Virus genome (UHGV): UHGV-0214148
Direction: 5' to 3' (one strand)
Length of the DNA stretch: 64,000 nt
Source of the DNA: a virus
How positions within the stretch are numbered: the stretch's first letter is position 1; each line of letters starts with the position of its first letter. Under the pieces are notes generated by a model. It did not search any database. It worked only from the letters and a program-made list of their open reading frames with translations, and was not told the DNA's origin. A program made the translations under genes and the position numbers. Positions 11,560-30,010 of this stretch are shown here, piece after piece.

Positions 11560-13854
11560 TTACTTACCAGCAGCAGCTTTGCCTTCGCCAGCAACGTTAC
11601 CTGCTACACCACCTTCGGTTTGTTTCTGACCGTTCTGTTCAACAGAAACATTGTAAGCCAGTTTTTCTTCAACCAGTTTGGTGATGCCTTTAACCCAGAT
11701 CAGACCAGTGATCGGGCAGTGGCAGATGTGCGCGTTACGCGGCTGTACGGCCAGCTCTTTAGAGGTAGAACCGTTACGCTGAATGTTGATGTTGGTAACC
11801 ATGATCGGAGACCAGAAGTGGTTACCCCAGTTCAGCACGTTGTAGGAACCATCGTCCGCAGTCGGAACTTTCAGGAACCATTGCAGACGACGAGTCCAGG
11901 AACCGTCAGCTGCGTTGTAGATACGCCAGCGGTCATCGTTGGTGGTGATCACTTCGTATTCGTAGCGATCGCCCAGCAGACGTTGGTCGCCCTGTACCAG
12001 CAGCAGCATAGATGCAGTCGGTTCGTCAGTTGCAATAACAACTTTCGGCAGAATGTCCGGATCGGCAGTGTACAGACGCAGCGCAGGAATGAAGCGAGAT
12101 TCCTGGATAGCCTGAGTTACCTGATTACCGATACGCTGTACCAGGCCCTGACGAGCGTTGATCAGTGCATCTTTGGTATCCAGGGACTGTACAACTTCAT
12201 CAACGTTGTAGTCAGACTCTTTGAACCACGGAGCAACCCAGTGACGGCCCAGACCACGAATGGCCGGTTTGTCCCACGGAGTGATCATGCTTGCAGCAGC
12301 GTTACGTACCGCTTCGGTGTAAGACAGCGTCTGAGTGATAGCCAGCTGTTCGTTACGGATGTTAACTGCGGAAATCAGGTCGTCCAGACGTTCGGTATCG
12401 TCGTATTCAACGCCAACCGGAGACTTGGTCAGGATCGGAGAACCGTATTGCAGTTTGTAGTTTTCTTGTTCCCAGATTGGGTCAAGCAGCAGACCCTGGG
12501 TACGACGGTTTTCGTTGGTACGAGTACCATCGAAGCGCCAGCCCATCAGTTCAAGTTTCAGACCGTCCAGGATAACTTTGCCGGTACCAGATTTGGTATC
12601 AACTTTGTTACCGGTAGCGTCGTACAGACCTTCGATTTCCAGTTTGTGACCAGCGATGTCAACTTTACCACCGAACTGACCGGTAGTGAACAGAGACATG
12701 TTGATGGTGATCACATAACGCAGGGTGTAGGAGTTCTGTTCCAGTGATTTCAGTGCCGGAATAGCTTCGCCTTTCCAGTCGGTGGTTTTCGCATTCAGAG
12801 AGAACGCAGTACGACGGAATTGCAGTACCAGCTCACGGCCATCACCTTCAGCAGGACGCTGGAAGGTTGCGAACTGCATGTCACGAACGTGCAGTTTGAT
12901 GAATTTACCTGCTTTCGCTTCTTCGGTCGGTTTACGTACGGAAATCAGCAGGCTGCCCAGAGCACAACCCGGTGCGATTTCATCAGTTTCGTCGTAACCT
13001 TCCTGAACGATACCCGGATGCGCAGACAGCTGGAACAGGTTCAGAGTGTCTTTAGCAAAGCTCAGGTAGTTAGTCGGGTACGGAGGTACACGACCCAGGC
13101 GAACAGATTCGTTCGGTACCAGTTCTTCGCTTACGAAGTATTCAGCGTTTTCACCGGTTTCCATTACGTAAGGAACGATGTTGATCGCTTCGTCCTGAAG
13201 AACGGTGTGGTCAGTCAGCGCTTCGTGCAGGTTACGACGATGATCTTCAACAACGTCTTTGGTCAGTAACGCGTGCATGACACCACGAGAAACGGTGGTC
13301 ACTTTGGTACGTACGGTAATACCAACATCGTTGGTGTCAACGGTGATGGTCGGGAACAGAGTCTCAGCAAAACGAGACTGAGTTTCCAGAGCACGTACGT
13401 TCAGCGTCCAGGTCAGACCCAGGTTTTTGTCGTAATCTTTGTTGGTGTAGTATTCCTGAGCAACAACCATACGCTCTTTGCCCCAGTCGCCGTTACCAGC
13501 TTGGGAACCAGGAATCGCAACGTCCAGGTTAAAACGGCTATGGAATTCTGGCTTAGCGTATTCTTGCGCTACTTTTTCTTGCAGGTCCATACCGTGACCA
13601 GCAGCACCCAGAATCATTGCAGAAGCAACTTCCGCAGCGTGGGACATTTTCTTACCGCCAGCAAACGCGTTTGCGTAGTGCTGTGCAGCATCGTCACGCA
13701 GGGTACCAAAAACTTTCGTGTTGCTACGTACAGACTCACCAGCAACGATGGTGTTCCACATTTCGCCAGCACTGTTGTTACTAATGACGCTTTGTACCAG
13801 CGAGTTACCAGCTTGTACGAGTTTCTCCAGATTAGAGATTCGGGTATCTTTCAT
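11560..13854 (-). CDS. putative major capsid protein (764 aa)
   Basis: ORF track; strongly biased highly-expressed-type codon usage (produces a 375-aa antisense ORF artefact); strong terminator downstream; size matches phiKZ-like jumbo-phage capsid proteins. Function is inference. Confidence 0.55.
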   Translation of the reverse strand: MKDTRISNLEKLVQAGNSLVQSVISNNSAGEMWNTIVAGESVRSNTKVFGTLRDDAAQHYANAFAGGKKMSHAAEVASAMILGAAGHGMDLQEKVAQEYAKPEFHSRFNLDVAIPGSQAGNGDWGKERMVVAQEYYTNKDYDKNLGLTWTLNVRALETQSRFAETLFPTITVDTNDVGITVRTKVTTVSRGVMHALLTKDVVEDHRRNLHEALTDHTVLQDEAINIVPYVMETGENAEYFVSEELVPNESVRLGRVPPYPTNYLSFAKDTLNLFQLSAHPGIVQEGYDETDEIAPGCALGSLLISVRKPTEEAKAGKFIKLHVRDMQFATFQRPAEGDGRELVLQFRRTAFSLNAKTTDWKGEAIPALKSLEQNSYTLRYVITINMSLFTTGQFGGKVDIAGHKLEIEGLYDATGNKVDTKSGTGKVILDGLKLELMGWRFDGTRTNENRRTQGLLLDPIWEQENYKLQYGSPILTKSPVGVEYDDTERLDDLISAVNIRNEQLAITQTLSYTEAVRNAAASMITPWDKPAIRGLGRHWVAPWFKESDYNVDEVVQSLDTKDALINARQGLVQRIGNQVTQAIQESRFIPALRLYTADPDILPKVVIATDEPTASMLLLVQGDQRLLGDRYEYEVITTNDDRWRIYNAADGSWTRRLQWFLKVPTADDGSYNVLNWGNHFWSPIMVTNINIQRNGSTSKELAVQPRNAHICHCPITGLIWVKGITKLVEEKLAYNVSVEQNGQKQTEGGVAGNVAGEGKAAAGK

Positions 13855-24250: not shown

Positions 24251-24547
24251 CTATAACAGATAAGGTATACCTTCAAAGATAATCTCATCGTTAGCGAAGC
24301 CAACAGACGCTTCCTCACCCCCAGAGGTGGTTGCCCAAATCTCTGCCGCAAAACGCTGGTTGTTAATCAACAGCCCACGGTTGTTTTCGAACAACACTAT
24401 CAAGATCAACCTGACGCTTTTCTCTTGATGTAAACGGCGTATAAACGCGTGCTTTACAGGAGAAGGATACCAGGTGAAGCGCGCTATTTTCCCTTTCGCA
24501 ACTCTACCTAAAAAGAGCTTTTCTAAGGTTACAAACTCAGTGCCCAT
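24251..24547 (-). CDS. hypothetical protein (~98 aa; start uncertain)
   Basis: Track ORF 24251..24583 overlaps the DHFR 3' end; in-frame ATG at 24545-24547 reduces overlap to 11 nt. Confidence 0.45.
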   Translation of the reverse strand: MGTEFVTLEKLFLGRVAKGKIARFTWYPSPVKHAFIRRLHQEKSVRLILIVLFENNRGLLINNQRFAAEIWATTSGGEEASVGFANDEIIFEGIPYLL

Positions 24548-25073
24548 CTCTTTTCCAAATCTGATAATGCCAACGCGGAACATCGCTATCCGGTTTGGAA
24601 GCGTGCGTTAAGTTATAAACCAGTCTAAACGTGTTACGATCGATTTCAGGAAAGAACGCATCCGCACCATCGACTTTAACTTCTACGCGTGACAAGTAAA
24701 TCTTATCCACGTAAGGTAACGCCTGATGGTAAATTTCTGCACCACCGATAATAAAGATTTCTTTAGGATAACCCTTTTTCTCAACCTCAGTTTTGAGGAA
24801 CTCAATAATCGAACCCATTTCACCCTTAAGGTTAAGCACCCCATCGATTTCGGGCACACCACCAGGTCTTCTCGTCAACACGACATGGTGACGATTAGGC
24901 AGGGGTTTATGCCCTAACGATTCCCATGTCTTGCTTCCCATCACGATAACCTTACCTGATGTAAGTGCCTTAAAATTCTTTAAGTCATCGGGAATACGCC
25001 ACGGTAATTTATTGTCTTTCCCAATTTCGTTATTCAACCCAGCAGCAGCTATCATCGAAACTGTAATTGTCAT
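24537..25073 (-). CDS. folA: dihydrofolate reductase
   Basis: Track ORF trimmed to ATG 25071-25073 (MTITVSMIAAAGLNNEIG...). Classical DHFR motifs: LPW, VIMGSKTWES, PLPNR, IIGGAEIY, FFP. GGAG Shine-Dalgarno upstream; ATGA overlap with upstream gene. Confidence 0.9.
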   Translation of the reverse strand: MTITVSMIAAAGLNNEIGKDNKLPWRIPDDLKNFKALTSGKVIVMGSKTWESLGHKPLPNRHHVVLTRRPGGVPEIDGVLNLKGEMGSIIEFLKTEVEKKGYPKEIFIIGGAEIYHQALPYVDKIYLSRVEVKVDGADAFFPEIDRNTFRLVYNLTHASKPDSDVPRWHYQIWKRDGH

Positions 25074-25375
25074 TTCTTTATCTCCAGTGAGCCTCTTAAA
25101 TGGCGTATAAAATCTTTTCGGGTATACCGACTCGTTTTGTACTGATCGGCTAAATGGTAAACGGTAACGTACCGCCCTTTGGCTTCCATATGCAAATGCG
25201 TTATATTGCCATCGTTCGTAGGGAGTGGTCTGATCAGAGGAATCATCAAATCCCCATTCCAACCAGGTTCATTAAGTCTCGGTATCAGTAATCGAATGTC
25301 TAGCCGTTTTACGCAGTACACCACATTACTTTCCGGCAACTTAACAACACATATCGCATCGGCTTTGAGTTTCAT
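25070..25375 (-). CDS. hypothetical protein (101 aa)
   Basis: ORF track; coupled to DHFR start. Confidence 0.6.
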   Translation of the reverse strand: MKLKADAICVVKLPESNVVYCVKRLDIRLLIPRLNEPGWNGDLMIPLIRPLPTNDGNITHLHMEAKGRYVTVYHLADQYKTSRYTRKDFIRHLRGSLEIKK

Positions 25376-25377
25376 TT

Positions 25378-25929
25378 TTAACCTTCCTGGTATTGTCTAA
25401 TTCCGTAATCAGGTAGAATGTTTTCTACTGTGTTTTTCGGTACAACTGAAAGCTGGTTGTATAAATTCAACAAATCTTCACGCAGTAACTTCTGCTCGAT
25501 ATCAAGTTTATAACAAGCCAGTTCTTTTTCTAGCGGTTTAAGTAACACAACGCGTGTTTGAAAACCGTCAATAGGCTCAGGAACACGATAACCACGACGA
25601 CGGTAAAAGGTTTCCAGCTTCGAATAATCGCGAATGTATGTTTTCGTCAGTGTGGAATAACCTGCGTCTAACATAAACTTGTAGAACGGACGTAAAGCAA
25701 TGAAACGATCGTATTCCAGGTGTTCTGGAATATAGAATTCGTAATTGTTGTAAGTGAGCGTGGAGAGTTGAGAACCATTACAATGCGCACAGTTAATAAA
25801 AATAGCCAGTCCAATCATTACCGGACGTGGGACGATAAGGGTTTTATCGCCAAACCGAATACGAAAGATTTCCTGCTGTAAACTGGTTTCAGATACAACT
25901 TCAGCGTCTAAAATATTAAATTTGTTCAT
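25378..25929 (-). CDS. hypothetical protein (~183 aa)
   Basis: Track ORF 25378..25977; ATG at 25927-25929 (MNKFNILDAEVV...) has AGGAG Shine-Dalgarno 8 nt upstream and lies just after the upstream stop. Confidence 0.7.
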   Translation of the reverse strand: MNKFNILDAEVVSETSLQQEIFRIRFGDKTLIVPRPVMIGLAIFINCAHCNGSQLSTLTYNNYEFYIPEHLEYDRFIALRPFYKFMLDAGYSTLTKTYIRDYSKLETFYRRRGYRVPEPIDGFQTRVVLLKPLEKELACYKLDIEQKLLREDLLNLYNQLSVVPKNTVENILPDYGIRQYQEG

Positions 25930-25982
25930 TTCTATTCTCCTAAAGGTCGAAAAAATAAAGCCCTCCGTAGAGGGCATTCTGA

Positions 25983-26624
25983 TTATAGAGCTTCGAAGAA
26001 ACGATCTACCGCCTGCGCAGCGGTAAGGTTAATCTGAATGAAAGTGCTTTCCTGTTCTGTTTCTTCGCTTGCTACCAGCGGGAGCAGCTTAAAGCCATCA
26101 CCTACTTCCAATACGCGCTCCACGATACGCGGTATGTCATTTAATCCAGATAGTGAACTGGTGACATCATCCATACGCATCTCGGCCGCATCATTCGCAA
26201 TACTGCAAACCAACTCTTCATTCGTAGGTTCAACAATACGAAAGTAGATAACGGTCGTAAAGAACTTATTCTCGCCTTCACAGATAGCAACATGCGAATC
26301 TTCAAAAGAGTAATATTTCACACCATCAAAAGTTCTGGTAACAACCGGGGTGTTGACATCTTTAAGCAAGCTGTTTAAAAGGGTCTGTGGCAAACGGCTC
26401 TGAATTTCTGTTTTATACACAAATTCACGTCGACCAACCTTCAGCACCTCTTCATCAAGACCCTTACAGCCAGCGTCTATAGCCCTTGCTAACCAAATCG
26501 AAATTGCAATAACTTCGGCTTGATACAACGATAAGACTCTTGCGTTTGGTGCCGCCATTACGAGTTTGTCGCCTTCAACAGAAAAGGCACATTCACAGAA
26601 GTCAGCTAAATTGTAACGTGTCAT
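25983..26624 (-). CDS. hypothetical protein (213 aa), first gene of the DHFR-containing block
   Basis: ORF track; AGGAG Shine-Dalgarno upstream; promoter-like motif ~50 nt upstream. Confidence 0.75.
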   Translation of the reverse strand: MTRYNLADFCECAFSVEGDKLVMAAPNARVLSLYQAEVIAISIWLARAIDAGCKGLDEEVLKVGRREFVYKTEIQSRLPQTLLNSLLKDVNTPVVTRTFDGVKYYSFEDSHVAICEGENKFFTTVIYFRIVEPTNEELVCSIANDAAEMRMDDVTSSLSGLNDIPRIVERVLEVGDGFKLLPLVASEETEQESTFIQINLTAAQAVDRFFEAL

Positions 26625-26675
26625 GATAATTCTCCTAAACGTAATAAACAGGTCGTTAAAAGATTACATTGTAAT

Positions 26676-26699
26676 CTCACTAAGGTAATATCTATCTGA
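26676..26699 (-). promoter_or_regulatory. promoter-like conserved motif, copy 2
   Basis: Minus-sense TCAGATAGATATTACCTTAGTGAG, between paralog-1 terminator and ATG 26624. Confidence 0.5.
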
Positions 26700-26715
26700 G
26701 ATTATTTTTAATGCG

Positions 26716-26761
26716 AAAAAAAAAAGAAAGGGGAGAACCACCCCATTACAGGGTGGTTCTC
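26716..26761 (-). terminator. intrinsic terminator after paralog 1
   Basis: Stem gagaaccaccc (26733-26743) / gggtggttctc (26751-26761); on minus strand followed by CCTTTCTTTTTTTTTT. Confidence 0.75.
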
Positions 26762-26779
26762 TTACTAAACAATCAGGGA

Positions 26780-28042
26780 TTATTTAGATTTTTCGTAAGC
26801 AGCGATACCTGCGGAGATATAGCCGTTCAGACCGCCAGCCAGATGTTTCTGAGTAGAGGCAATAACTTTCTCGCCCAGAGACACTGCCTGGTTAATGCTG
26901 TTGATGTAACGACGTGCGGTACGTACAGATTCGGTCAGTTCCGGTTTTTCGTCGATCTTCACGCTGTCGATTTCTTTCAGCAGCTTCTCAATCTGCTGAC
27001 TGAATTTCTCGCGAGCCTGTTCGGTCTTACGATATTCCAGAACGTTCTTCTCAATCTGTTTACCCACTTCGTTGAAGAAGGCATTGGTCTTAGCCAGTTC
27101 GCTAACAGACGGAGTTTTAACGTTGGTTTCAGCACGGTTTTCAGCTTCCACGTAGCTGGAGCTAAAGCCGCCTTCTTCGTCATATTCCATCTTCAGCGCC
27201 ATGTTACCAAGTTTGAACTTGTTAACGTCTTCTTTGGCCAGAGCAGCGAAGTCTGCTTTCAGTTTATCAACTTTAGCGCCATCGCCTTTAACAACGTTAC
27301 CAACCAAATCCGTACCGTTGTTCAGGAAGCTCTGAACGTTACCACTGTAGTAGGTGGAAACGTGGTTCAGGATATTCTTCAGGCGCACCAGATCGTCACC
27401 AACGAATTTACCGTCGACGGACAGAGACTTGATGAAGCCACCAGAGATTTCATCTTTCTTCTGTTTGCCCAGCTTACGAATAGCTTCGTCGTATTTCTTA
27501 GAACGGGCCTGGATGGATTTACCCTGGTTGGAGAATTTCAGCCAACGATCTTTGATCTTACGGCCTTGTTCTTTCAGCCATTCCCAAATACGTTTCAGGA
27601 AGGCTTTAATGTCTTCCCACAGGGATTCACGAGCAACCTGACGACGGTTACGAGAACCGTAGGATTCGTGAGCAACAGAAGAACGGTGTTCGAAGTTCCA
27701 ACGAGAACGGATAGATTCCTGAGCAACGTCCAGCGCAGTCGCAGCGTCGTCCGGCATATCTTCTTCGGCGTCCATCGGTTCTTCACCGTCTTCGCCAGCA
27801 CCTTCACCGTCAGCAGCAGCCTGAGCTTCATCCAGAACTTCCAGCTGAGCATCAGTTTCGTCACCGTCTTCTGCCAGCAGTTCAGCGTCAGCGTCCAGGG
27901 CTTCGATCGGTTTGGTATCATGCTCGATATCGGCCAGAGTACCTTCAACAGATTCTGCTGGCAGTTCGATGCCGTCTGGAACTACAGTGGCAGTAGCTTC
28001 CATCGATTCACGAGCGGCGCGAGTTTTTGCGAAATTTGCCAT
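26780..28042 (-). CDS. acidic paralog 1 of tandem pair (~420 aa); possible abundant virion/head protein
   Basis: Track ORF 26780..28069 starts at GTG; ATG at 28040-28042 gives MANFAKTRAARESMEA, identical to the paralog 2 N-terminus; shared C-terminus GLNGY..AGI.AY.KSK; optimal codon usage. Confidence 0.85.
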   Translation of the reverse strand: MANFAKTRAARESMEATATVVPDGIELPAESVEGTLADIEHDTKPIEALDADAELLAEDGDETDAQLEVLDEAQAAADGEGAGEDGEEPMDAEEDMPDDAATALDVAQESIRSRWNFEHRSSVAHESYGSRNRRQVARESLWEDIKAFLKRIWEWLKEQGRKIKDRWLKFSNQGKSIQARSKKYDEAIRKLGKQKKDEISGGFIKSLSVDGKFVGDDLVRLKNILNHVSTYYSGNVQSFLNNGTDLVGNVVKGDGAKVDKLKADFAALAKEDVNKFKLGNMALKMEYDEEGGFSSSYVEAENRAETNVKTPSVSELAKTNAFFNEVGKQIEKNVLEYRKTEQAREKFSQQIEKLLKEIDSVKIDEKPELTESVRTARRYINSINQAVSLGEKVIASTQKHLAGGLNGYISAGIAAYEKSK

Positions 28043-28118
28043 TTTAAGCTTTTCCTCTAAGGGGAACACGTCGTTCCCCTATTGATTTATTTCAAGAACT
28101 GTACGAGCGTAAGTCTAA

Positions 28119-29390
28119 TTATTTAGACTTTTTGTACGCGCCGATACCAGCACCCAGGTAACCGTTCAGACCGCTAATGACGGTGTTAGCTACGTAGCTA
28201 ACGGCACGGTTCAGGGTCTGGTAGTTCTTCACAGACTGATCAGCAGCTTGACGTGCATTACGCAGTCCTTCCCACTTACTCTCGTCTTTTTCGTTGTTCA
28301 GCGCGTTGGACGCTTTTTCAGCAGCCTGTTGCAGTTTCACGATTTCAGAATCGTAAGCACGGAAATCTTTCAGTACGGCTTCGAAGCCTTTACCGATTGC
28401 TTCCAGAGCAGATGCTGCGCCAGCCATTTCAGAAACAGACGGAGTAGCCACTTCTTTATCGTCAGAAGCGTCACCGGTGCTCATGAAAGCAATTGCGGTG
28501 AACTTGTGGCCGCCAGCCAGTTCTTTAGTACCAGCCTGAACGTAAGCGTTGCCCGGCAGTGCCAGCAGTTTAGACGCATCACCATTTTCAAAGTTCGGCA
28601 GAGAATGCAGTTTAGACGCTGCTTTACCAAACAGTTCTACCGGCTGATCGCCACGCATTGCTTTGAATGCGTCATCGTCACCTTTGGTAACAGCGGTCAC
28701 AGCTTCACCGGCTTGTTTTTCCAGTGCACCGATAGCACCTTTCGCTTTACCTGCGGTAACTTCTTTAGCGATGGCAATAGAGCCAGCAGCATCGAATTTA
28801 CCTTCGATGGACAGTTTGGTGATAAAGCCACCAGAAATGTTGTCTTTATCTTGTTTGCCCAGCTTGCGGATCATTTCCTGATATTTCTTCGCACGTTTCT
28901 GCGCGGTCTTACCGACGTTGAAATATTTCAGTTTCAGGTCTTTGATCTTCGCGATCACTTCTTTACAGAACTGAATGAAGCGCTCGTAAAGACCCTTCAG
29001 GGTTTCTTTCCAACCTTCCTGGGCAGCAGCAGTCATGCCACGACCACGGCGATAGGATTCGCGAGCCAGTTTAGTGCGCTCCAGGTTCCAACGACGTGCG
29101 ATGGATTCCTGTGCCACTTCGTGCAGGGCAACCGCTTCTTCCGGCATTTCTTCACCGTTAGCAACGGCTTCTTCCGCCTGTTCGATAGCGTCTTCAGTAC
29201 GCTCGGTATCGGCAGCCAGGGTTTCACCGTCGGTTTCCAGCTGATCGAGCTGACCGTCGATAGATGCTACGTCCGCAAGTTGGACGTCCAGGTTCTCTTC
29301 TGCCGGTTCAACGTTGCTGATACCGTCGATTACTTCATCGGCCGCTTCCATCGATTCACGAGCGGCGCGAGTTTTTGCGAAATTTGCCAT
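28119..29390 (-). CDS. acidic paralog 2 of tandem pair (423 aa); possible abundant virion/head protein
   Basis: ORF track; ATG 29388-29390 with AAGGA Shine-Dalgarno; N-terminal 16 aa identical to paralog 1 (47 nt identical at DNA level). Confidence 0.85.
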   Translation of the reverse strand: MANFAKTRAARESMEAADEVIDGISNVEPAEENLDVQLADVASIDGQLDQLETDGETLAADTERTEDAIEQAEEAVANGEEMPEEAVALHEVAQESIARRWNLERTKLARESYRRGRGMTAAAQEGWKETLKGLYERFIQFCKEVIAKIKDLKLKYFNVGKTAQKRAKKYQEMIRKLGKQDKDNISGGFITKLSIEGKFDAAGSIAIAKEVTAGKAKGAIGALEKQAGEAVTAVTKGDDDAFKAMRGDQPVELFGKAASKLHSLPNFENGDASKLLALPGNAYVQAGTKELAGGHKFTAIAFMSTGDASDDKEVATPSVSEMAGAASALEAIGKGFEAVLKDFRAYDSEIVKLQQAAEKASNALNNEKDESKWEGLRNARQAADQSVKNYQTLNRAVSYVANTVISGLNGYLGAGIGAYKKSK

Positions 29391-29449
29391 TTCGTTTATT
29401 TCCTTTGGTTATATAACCCAATTACACGCCCCTAGAATGAGGGGCCCCC

Positions 29450-30010
29450 TTAGGGACGTGCGATTTTCAAAAACACTGCTAACGACGAGATCATGTCGGA
29501 CAACCCGTTCGGGCGCGTCATCCAGCGTGCCAGCAGTTCATGGTCTGCATAAGATAAAAGACGTTTGCTACACTCAACAGATTGGTGAGCGGAGCCCATA
29601 TTACGTACAGTACCTCGGCGACCAAACGCAGCAGCTAACAGACGCGAGCCTAATGCACCCGTCTGTTCAACATTCTTCGTGTTACGAACATCGTTCATAT
29701 ACGACGACAGCAAAGTCGACCACTGCCCTAACGTCACATTACGTCGCTTACCATCCAGCAGGAAGGCTACGCTTTCGTTATAAAACGTATTAAAGGTAAA
29801 TCCGACCTGCGGATATTCGTCATATAATACCTGCTGCAATGAGTCAGCAGCCATCAGACGAAAGTACGGTAAAATAACGGCGGCGGCTTCCAGTGTTTTG
29901 TGAATAACCTCGTCATCGTGTGTGTCGATTGGGTTTTTCGATAAAATCGACATGTAGGATTTAATGCGCTCTACAGCAACATTAAATTCTGGACTATCGT
30001 GCTCAAACAT
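29450..30010 (-). CDS. hypothetical protein (186 aa)
   Basis: ORF track; co-oriented block. Confidence 0.75.
   Translation of the reverse strand: MFEHDSPEFNVAVERIKSYMSILSKNPIDTHDDEVIHKTLEAAAVILPYFRLMAADSLQQVLYDEYPQVGFTFNTFYNESVAFLLDGKRRNVTLGQWSTLLSSYMNDVRNTKNVEQTGALGSRLLAAAFGRRGTVRNMGSAHQSVECSKRLLSYADHELLARWMTRPNGLSDMISSLAVFLKIARP

Follow-up and report, generated by a model that had tools for sequence, protein, structure and literature searches.

Short-tract gene conversion as the probable source of a leader shared by two tandem internal head protein genes of an SPN3US-like jumbo phage

The 64,000-nucleotide (nt) stretch of viral DNA analysed here (UHGV virus genome UHGV-0214148, hereafter the window) carries on its minus strand two adjacent genes, A and B, which are separated by 76 nt and begin with the same 47 nt. 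An earlier reading made from the letters alone (the sequence-only reading) had described them as tandem paralogs of about 420 amino acids (aa) with common termini, and this description holds: both proteins have the N-terminus MANFAKTRAARESMEA and the C-terminus GLNGY..AGI.AY.KSK, the latter conserved only at the protein level, and they are 35% identical overall (expectation value, E, 1e-54). The pair and its leaders are laid out as follows.

28119-29390, minus strand: gene A, 423 aa, orthologue of SPN3US gp53 (internal head or ejection protein, PF12699); putative leader donor.
26780-28042, minus strand: gene B, 420 aa, orthologue of SPN3US gp54; putative leader recipient.
29344-29390, minus strand: leader copy of gene A, codons 1-16, encoding MANFAKTRAARESMEA; presumed unchanged donor sequence.
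27996-28042, minus strand: leader copy of gene B, 47/47 identical to gene A; putative converted tract at least 27997-28037 (+6 to +46) and at most 27996-28044 (-2 to +47).

The true start of gene B is the ATG at 28042, which has a GAGG at the correct distance before it and is equivalent to the Met at which all orthologues begin. An upstream GTG at 28069, taken as the start by the automatic open reading frame (ORF) call, was rejected, as the orthologues give it no support.

Both proteins match the Pfam family PF12699 (phiKZ_IP) over profile positions 2-387 of 387, with E 1.5e-73 (248.7 bits) for A and E 8e-59 (200.2 bits) for B at a score cut-off of 27 bits, and both match PHROG 2497, 'internal head protein' (E 4e-146 and 6e-119, respectively); no sequence relative of either protein was found in PDB at E<=1. 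The DNA of the locus is about 75% identical to that of SPN3US-like jumbo phages of Salmonella and Erwinia, gene A is 69% identical to SPN3US gp53 at the aa level, and the pair is syntenic with gp53/gp54 of SPN3US and gp237/gp238 of phiEaH2. In addition, a gene order with virion structural proteins upstream and DHFR downstream is common to SPN3US, phiEaH2 and 16 other genomes; in the window, a DHFR-like ORF lies at 24537-25262, and the upstream ORFs match PHROGs conserved in the SPN3US-like neighbourhood. Every sequence-level defining feature of the SPN3US gp53/gp54 family is present (profile match, neighbourhood and A-x-E propeptide sites), and by these features A and B are assigned to that family, as tandem paralogues for the predicted major internal head ('ejection') proteins of an SPN3US-like (Seoul-like) jumbo phage.

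In SPN3US, gp53 and gp54 outnumber all other internal 'ejection' proteins, with >600 copies of each per capsid, and both are cleaved after A-x-E by the prohead protease gp245 (PMC5694885, PMC10052503). The cuts mapped by mass spectrometry lie at ARE-12, AQE-95 and AQE-125 in gp53 and at AQE-124 and ARE-137 in gp54, and the mature N-termini are GWKETLK... and SLWDDIK..., respectively (PMC10052503); cleavage of gp54 at the residue-12 ARE is inferred, not measured, in the literature (PMC5694885). All of the mapped gp245 sites are kept in the window proteins. Gene A encodes A-x-E sites at ARE-12, AQE-95, ARE-111 and AQE-125, and gene B at ARE-12, AQE-109, AHE-126 and ARE-139, of which E126 and E139 align with AQE-124 and ARE-137 of gp54; these sites are conserved in 16-19 of 19 orthologues. 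The resulting predictions are listed below, with a slash for the cut.

29355-29363, minus strand: A-R-E, residues 10-12 of gene A; predicted first prohead-protease cut ARE-12/S; invariant in 19/19 orthologues; cut in SPN3US gp53 by mass spectrometry (PMC10052503).
28007-28015, minus strand: A-R-E, residues 10-12 of gene B; invariant in 19/19 orthologues.
29016-29390, minus strand: predicted propeptide of A, residues 1-125, with E12, E95, E111 and E125; predicted mature N-terminus GWKETLK.
27626-28042, minus strand: predicted propeptide of B, residues 1-139, with E12, E109, E126 and E139; predicted mature N-terminus SLWEDIK.

The sequence-only reading had proposed that A and B encode abundant, protease-processed head or inner-body proteins, and by analogy with gp53 and gp54, whose sites are conserved here, published experiments on these orthologues agree with this proposal. 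Two of its particulars need to be narrowed. The proteins had been called very acidic internally, and the acidity is found in the N-terminal propeptides (isoelectric point, pI, 4.23 and net charge -19 for A; pI 4.08 and net charge -27 for B), whereas what is predicted to remain after processing is basic (pI 9.3, net charge +10). Similarly, both ARE and SME had been counted as A-x-E sites of the kind cleaved by prohead proteases; ARE-12 matches the mapped gp53 site, whereas SME-15 is an S-x-E and would be a candidate site at most. The optimal codons that had been remarked on were confirmed: with a list of optimal codons based on E. coli usage, the fraction of optimal codons (Fop) is 0.816 in A and 0.814 in B, against a median of 0.523 for the 44 ORFs of the window, and the sole window ORF with a higher value is that of the major head protein (11560-13854). 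This very strong codon bias supports a high expression of both genes.

The identity of positions 27996-28042 and 29344-29390 is real (47/47). The window contains the 47-mer, ATGGCAAATTTCGCAAAAACTCGCGCCGCTCGTGAATCGATGGAAGC, at the two gene starts and nowhere else; a third copy was absent even with three mismatches allowed, no copy arose in 100 shuffles, and six-frame scans of the window with the motifs AR[ED]S.[ED] and NF...A.E returned only genes A and B. Beyond the first 16 codons, A and B share 49% nt identity in aligned codons, and the same codon alignment holds no further identical run of more than 14 nt that might indicate conversion elsewhere in the two genes. In 20,000 permutations of the codon columns, a run of 47 nt was never reached (maximum 34). 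Residues that are identical elsewhere in A and B use the same codon in 85 of 132 cases (0.64); in the leader, 13 of the 14 degenerate codons are identical, and 13 consecutive matches have p ~0.003 even assuming an identical peptide. The 47-nt identity is not due to chance.

The gene pair was collected from 24 related genomes, comprising 18 GenBank phages and 6 IMG/VR contigs, to which two circular 'plasmid' records, L032 (NZ_CP173450.1) and L033 (NZ_CP134650.1), were added later. In L003, gene A is identical to that of the window at 99% of protein and 97% of DNA positions, and A and B show the same 47-nt identity; in L004, L005 and L006, gene A is 93-96% identical to the window at the aa level. 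The leader of gene A is identical in the window, L003, L004 and L005 and has one synonymous change in L006, L032 and L033, and its peptide does not vary among the 14 full-length members read from the 185-member protein cluster of A. The leader of gene B, however, differs among these relatives: in L004-L006, in E. coli 98232 p-contig_4 and in the Enterobacter ludwigii 'plasmid', gene B begins MANFYKNKIARESMES, with only 31 of 48 nt identical to gene A. The sequence-only reading had suggested that related genomes be compared for identity limited to about the first 50 nt, and such a pattern was found: gene B of the window differs from the L004-L006 alleles at 16 sites, all within +6 to +46, and the flanks match, the 40 nt upstream being essentially identical and the next ~570 nt differing at ~1.5 sites per 30 nt (overall ~0-5% divergent). 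Codon 16 of the window gene B is chimeric, reading GCT against GCG in gene A and TCT in the unconverted gene B. The chimeric codon and the positions of the differences therefore place the putative converted tract at 41-49 nt (from -2/+6 to +46/+47), ending inside codon 16.

These comparisons show a recent, non-reciprocal transfer of the A leader onto gene B in the lineage of the window and L003. Gene A is taken as the donor and B as the recipient, because the A leader is constant in all these genomes, the old B leader shares the clade-specific Met14 with gene A, and the old B leader occurs on two C-terminal allele types (the converted leader occurs on one only). The last two observations also suggest that the L004-type B leader is native and probably ancestral. 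Moreover, the converted state is present in L003 and in 12 full-length cluster proteins from independent assemblies (Salmonella isolate, ENA, MGnify and JGI/IMG records), which makes an assembly artefact unlikely. Of the two causes that had been offered for the identity, gene conversion or a nucleotide-level constraint, the former is supported by relatives with the same A leader and a different B leader, and the latter is not. Taken as a whole, an SPN3US-like head protein pair whose leader has undergone gene conversion is, in our judgement, very probably the right explanation.

If the paralogues had diverged independently since their duplication, A and B of one genome would be as similar as A of one genome and B of another. 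With 38 sequences aligned, A and B form sharply separate orthologue groups from about column 17, columns 1-15 vary by genome, and the motif NF...ARES.E is invariant in all 38. The similarities within and between genomes were compared, with the comparison of codons 5-9 covering 15 related lineages, and are given by segment below.

Leader, aa: A-B within a genome 0.889, between genomes 0.706; permutation P<5e-5.
Leader, nt: A-B within a genome 0.816, between genomes 0.682; permutation P<5e-5.
Rest of gene, aa: A-B within a genome 0.302, between genomes 0.295; permutation P 0.00045.
Codons 5-9, nt: A-B within a genome 0.77, between genomes 0.52; orthologues A-A 0.53 and B-B 0.52; permutation P<5e-5.
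Codons 10-15, third positions: A-B within a genome 0.46, between genomes 0.40; A-A 0.41 and B-B 0.49; P 0.12.

Several derived states are common to both paralogues of a lineage, such as V5/S7/L9 in SPN3US and, in the Wellington and Derbicus clades, a lost codon 2. In pEa9, L7 (CTT) is found in both paralogues, gene A carries B-type synonymous states, and the identical A-B run is 35 nt, which is not seen in its relative pEa4 (94-95% identical); this pattern indicates a transfer from B to A. On the alignment, codons 2-9 evolve in concert in many SPN3US-like phages, with transfer in both directions, and from codon 17 the two genes appear as separate orthologue groups that predate the split of the genera. 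A rough, non-rigorous estimate is that at least four to five independent conversion events have occurred in the family.

The codons for A-R-E-S-x-E (10-15) behave differently from those before them. Their third positions give no concerted signal (P 0.12), and they carry a paralogue-specific synonymous signature across genera, with E12 and E15 mostly GAG in A and GAA in B. In SPN3US, pEa29, phiEaH2, ChrisDB and others, five of the six third positions of A-R-E-S-x-E differ between A and B, below the 64% same-codon background. The lack of a concerted third-position signal together with the paralogue signature suggests that in most lineages these codons are kept by selection on the peptide, not by conversion, and the A/B difference is probably an old paralogue-specific signature, which may limit homology between the direct repeats. 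As the window tract runs through codons 10-15, it is unusually long.

We propose that each precursor has three parts, namely a leader of 12-16 residues (M-A-N-F-x5-A-R-E/S-x-E), an acidic propeptide of about 110-125 residues with A-x-E sites, and a basic mature domain of about 32 kDa. By comparison with the orthologues, the prohead protease would cut after A-x-E, so that the leader and the acidic propeptide would be lost and the basic domain would remain beside the DNA inside the head. The leader motif (ATG GCA AAY TTY ... GCN CGN GAR TCN) would be under purifying selection, which would preserve short stretches of homology or microhomology where the two diverged genes begin, and such stretches would permit the occasional transfer of a patch between leaders. 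In the window lineage, a patch of the A leader (41-49 nt) was copied non-reciprocally onto gene B, 1.35 kb downstream. Converted copies may be tolerated or favoured, since both leaders would serve the same machinery, through recognition by the protease and possibly through targeting to the prohead core.

Several points weigh against this reading or against parts of it. The permutation tests of leader similarity ignore relatedness among genomes, and in SPN3US, pEa29 and pEa4 the string GCA CAA CGT AAA ATC, or the identity of codons 5-9, could be retained ancestry. The boundaries and direction of the window tract are drawn relative to the L004-L006 alleles and not to the pre-conversion B allele of the window lineage itself, and the donor could be gene A of a co-infecting relative instead of the resident copy. 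In addition, before the event the two leaders had no identical run longer than about 8 nt, and only 1-2 bases are common to both at the 3' junction. Classical conversion driven by homology is therefore not obviously sufficient; a template switch at microhomology, or the patchy repair of a poorly matched heteroduplex, appears more plausible.

Explanations other than a transfer between the two genes have to be weighed against the same observations. A function at the nucleotide level, such as a translation-initiation or downstream-box element, a regulator or small RNA site, or an RNA structure, might hold the 47 nt identical. In its favour, both genes are, by their codon bias (Fop about 0.81), very highly expressed, the 47-mer is less structured than its shuffles (z = +1.4), like an open initiation region, and gene A is invariant over its first 300 nt in the window, L004 and L005 (the remainder differs by ~10%). 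This explanation is largely refuted, and we regard it as very improbable, given that the sister genomes with the same A leader have a B leader matching at the 31 of 48 nt given above, that SPN3US, pEa29, Caitlin and pEa4 show 4-6 synonymous differences beneath identical leader peptides (six in SPN3US), and that the sequences before the ATG differ between A and B at -8 to -3. Nor does the segment resemble an RNA element: there is no significant fold and no third copy in the window, and no Rfam family reaches its gathering score anywhere in the window. Folding of the shared 5' segment, which the sequence-only reading had put forward as a check, revealed no unusual structure, and an RNA element in the 47-mer was rejected (-6.6 kcal/mol, with 192 of 200 shuffles folding at least as well); the 115-nt initiation regions fold at z = -1.9 and -0.95.

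Selection on the peptide alone is a second candidate, in which parallel aa substitutions would track one partner, such as a prohead-core receptor or the protease, without any transfer of DNA. The invariance of NF...ARES.E in the 38 sequences and the co-variation by genome of the variable positions 5-9 and 14 are in line with it, as are the Caitlin paralogues, which both have Val9 with different codons (GTG and GTC), and SPN3US, whose leader peptides are identical despite six synonymous differences. It leaves unexplained, however, the 13 of 14 identical degenerate codons and the chimeric codon 16, the 16 clustered simultaneous nucleotide changes, and the B-type synonymous states in gene A of pEa9. 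Matching is also not obligatory, and identity of the leaders is evidently not required, as Asesino, phiEaH2, Wellington and the L004-type phages have only 9-11 of 16 residues identical. Parallel substitution without transfer is thus unlikely in our view; selection that helps converted copies to fix may be a complement to conversion and not an alternative to it. The last candidate, a collapsed or mis-joined repeat in the assembly, or import of the gene B leader from another phage, seems exceedingly unlikely. The relatives are metagenomes and draft assemblies, and mosaicism is evident in five close genomes, whose relationships change from the upstream gene to the 3' half of B and again to the downstream region. 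Yet the converted state recurs in L003, which is ~3% divergent elsewhere, and in the 12 independently assembled proteins. Sequencing reads are longer than 47 nt, so that a repeat of this length would not cause a mis-join with both flanks intact, and an external donor would have to equal the resident gene A.

Leader conversion between A and B has parallels of different closeness. The orthologous tandem pair gp53/gp54 of SPN3US has the same neighbourhood, Pfam family and A-x-E positions, and its two proteins likewise share an identical 15-residue leader, MANFVKSKLARESVE in SPN3US against MANFAKTRAARESMEA in the window. The identity in SPN3US is, however, at the peptide level only (40 of 48 nt, with six synonymous differences), whereas that in the window is DNA-perfect through codon 16. 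In phiKZ, gp92-gp97 (PF12699 and neighbours) are tandem paralogues with leaders of about 11-13 residues that end at a protease motif (LLE, SLE), and gp93 is reported, as cited in PMC5694885, to be cut at SLE-13; the motif there is S/A/G-x-E instead of A-x-E. An extension of conversion to phiKZ was rejected, as the gp92-gp97 leaders are identical neither at the peptide nor at the DNA level, and in a tblastn comparison of the phiKZ proteins with the window proteins the similarity was too low at E 1e-5.

The internal proteins (IPs) of T4 offer a functional parallel. Their leaders direct them to the prohead core and are then cleaved off (PMC7411985, PMC3012670). On paper, the capsid-targeting sequence (CTS) of IPI/IPII/IPIII and Alt is alike in being a leader of about 10-20 residues, common to diverse, abundant, basic, DNA-associated ejected proteins and removed by the prohead protease after Glu (PMC7411985, PMC3012670). 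A and B have the corresponding CTS-type feature, a 12-residue leader ending ARE/S in both proteins. The T4 leader MKTYQEFIAE is visibly unrelated to that of the window, and the parallel is one of functional analogy, not membership. Furthermore, experiments with the T4 CTS have brought foreign proteins into the head, a role that for the window leader is a proposal, and the T4 IPs lack the long removable acidic propeptide that follows the leader in the window proteins. The IP genes of T-even phages have reportedly been shuffled through conserved 5' ends, as Repoila and colleagues are said to have described in 1994. As for the process itself, gene conversion of tandem paralogues in bacterial rRNA operons, tuf genes and globins is likewise a non-reciprocal homogenisation in which paralogues are closer to each other than to orthologues, the donor is unchanged and the recipient is chimeric. 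Compared with such cases, the window tract is unusually short (41-49 nt), with little flanking homology, and confined to the leader-coding segment of genes that are ~49% identical.

Other features near the pair may bear on its expression and are as follows.

28061-28079, minus strand: hairpin GGGGAAC-GACGT-GTTCCCC in the A-B intergenic region, ending 3 nt before the Shine-Dalgarno sequence GAGG of gene B (28054-28057) and folded in the minimum free energy structure.
26733-26761, minus strand: intrinsic-terminator-like hairpin of 13 base pairs (bp), followed by a T-run, directly after gene B.
29407-29460, minus strand: conserved element upstream of gene A, near-invariant across genera.

The intergenic hairpin is GC-rich, and no U-run follows it. 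Its structure, not its sequence, is kept in 14 related phages, with compensatory changes in four of seven pairs; it might serve to process or stabilise RNA, or to terminate transcription in a non-canonical way after A. The element upstream of gene A contains, at 29425-29460, a hairpin of ~10 bp formed by CACGTCCCTA...TAGGGGCGTG around GGGGGCCCC, which overlaps the stop codon of the upstream gene; a TAA to TGA change of this stop in pEa11 and Wellington is compensated in the 3' arm of the hairpin, as read by eye from the alignment. It also contains the palindrome GGTTATATAACC (29407-29418), which is unique in the window and lies before the ribosome-binding site of gene A. The whole element may be a promoter, an operator or an RNA element for the most highly expressed head genes. 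A scan for sigma-70 promoters over 26500-29700 gave 0 sites against 2.7 expected, a result that is no surprise, and carries no information, for a phiKZ-like phage with RNA polymerases of its own.

The surroundings of the leaders are variable. The 3' half of gene B (26780-27410) falls into at least three allele types among close relatives, including L004-L006 and P0031-P0047 (68-74% and 84-85% aa identity in that half), and residues 17-210 remain 92-96% identical among them; the mature domain of the gene B protein looks like a recombination-shuffled, fast-evolving module. Just downstream of B, ORFs 25378-25977 and 25983-26624 (minus strand; region 25100-26620) diverge more among close relatives than the rest of the locus does, the differences from L006 amounting to as many as 45 of 45 in a window of comparison, and the latter ORF has no PHROG match; on these comparisons the region 25100-26620 appears to be a hypervariable slot beside the head protein genes. 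Close relatives are mosaic both around and within A and B, which shows that recombination is frequent in this phage population. Opposite B and A, two antisense ORFs on the plus strand (26711-28060, 449 aa, and 28248-29435, 395 aa) are rich in F, V, T and R and of low complexity, and are most likely shadow ORFs caused by the strong codon bias of A and B and not genes. In the window as a whole, 38 of 44 long ORFs lie on the minus strand, and no tRNA genes were found. Many isolate assemblies of Salmonella, Shigella and E. coli contain the phage lineage as contigs of ~220-227 kb, and it is also present as circular 'plasmids' of ~222 kb in complete genomes of E. coli (urine, Egypt) and Enterobacter ludwigii (gull), an occurrence consistent with 'persistent virulent Seoul-like jumbo phages' (bioRxiv 10.1101/2024.12.31.630880).

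The kind of gene and the identical N-termini in SPN3US were already known; the identical first 15 residues of gp53 and gp54 were noted in 2017 by Ali et al. and likened to the capsid-targeting sequence of T4 (PMC5694885), and by this analogy the leader has been proposed to be a CTS-like prohead targeting signal. What the present comparison adds is modest, namely evidence for conversion at the DNA level, a delimited, polarised and recent case of it, and its restriction to the first ~9-16 codons; a literature search on the conversion of phage paralogues returned nothing relevant. The comparison accounts for the oddity seen in SPN3US, diverged paralogues with identical N-termini: selection conserves the leader, and DNA transfer homogenises it as well. 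For annotation and phylogeny, the first ~50 nt of A and B genes should be treated with caution, as they depart from the gene tree, and the 47-nt direct repeat in the window could promote deletion or fusion of A and B.

Residues 1-16 appear to be a separately evolving module, in which NF and ARES.E are invariant and positions 5-9 are variable yet matched within a genome, as fits a targeting or cleavage tag. A more speculative possibility, which we put forward only tentatively and consider rather doubtful, is that the leader is a maintained hotspot of very short-tract conversion, selected to match both cargo proteins to one partner (a prohead-core receptor, a gp243-like factor or the protease), with residues 5-9 as the specificity determinant of a capsid-targeting signal. 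If this were true, the leader would provide a tag of 12-16 residues for loading foreign proteins into the heads of Seoul-like phages at hundreds of copies.

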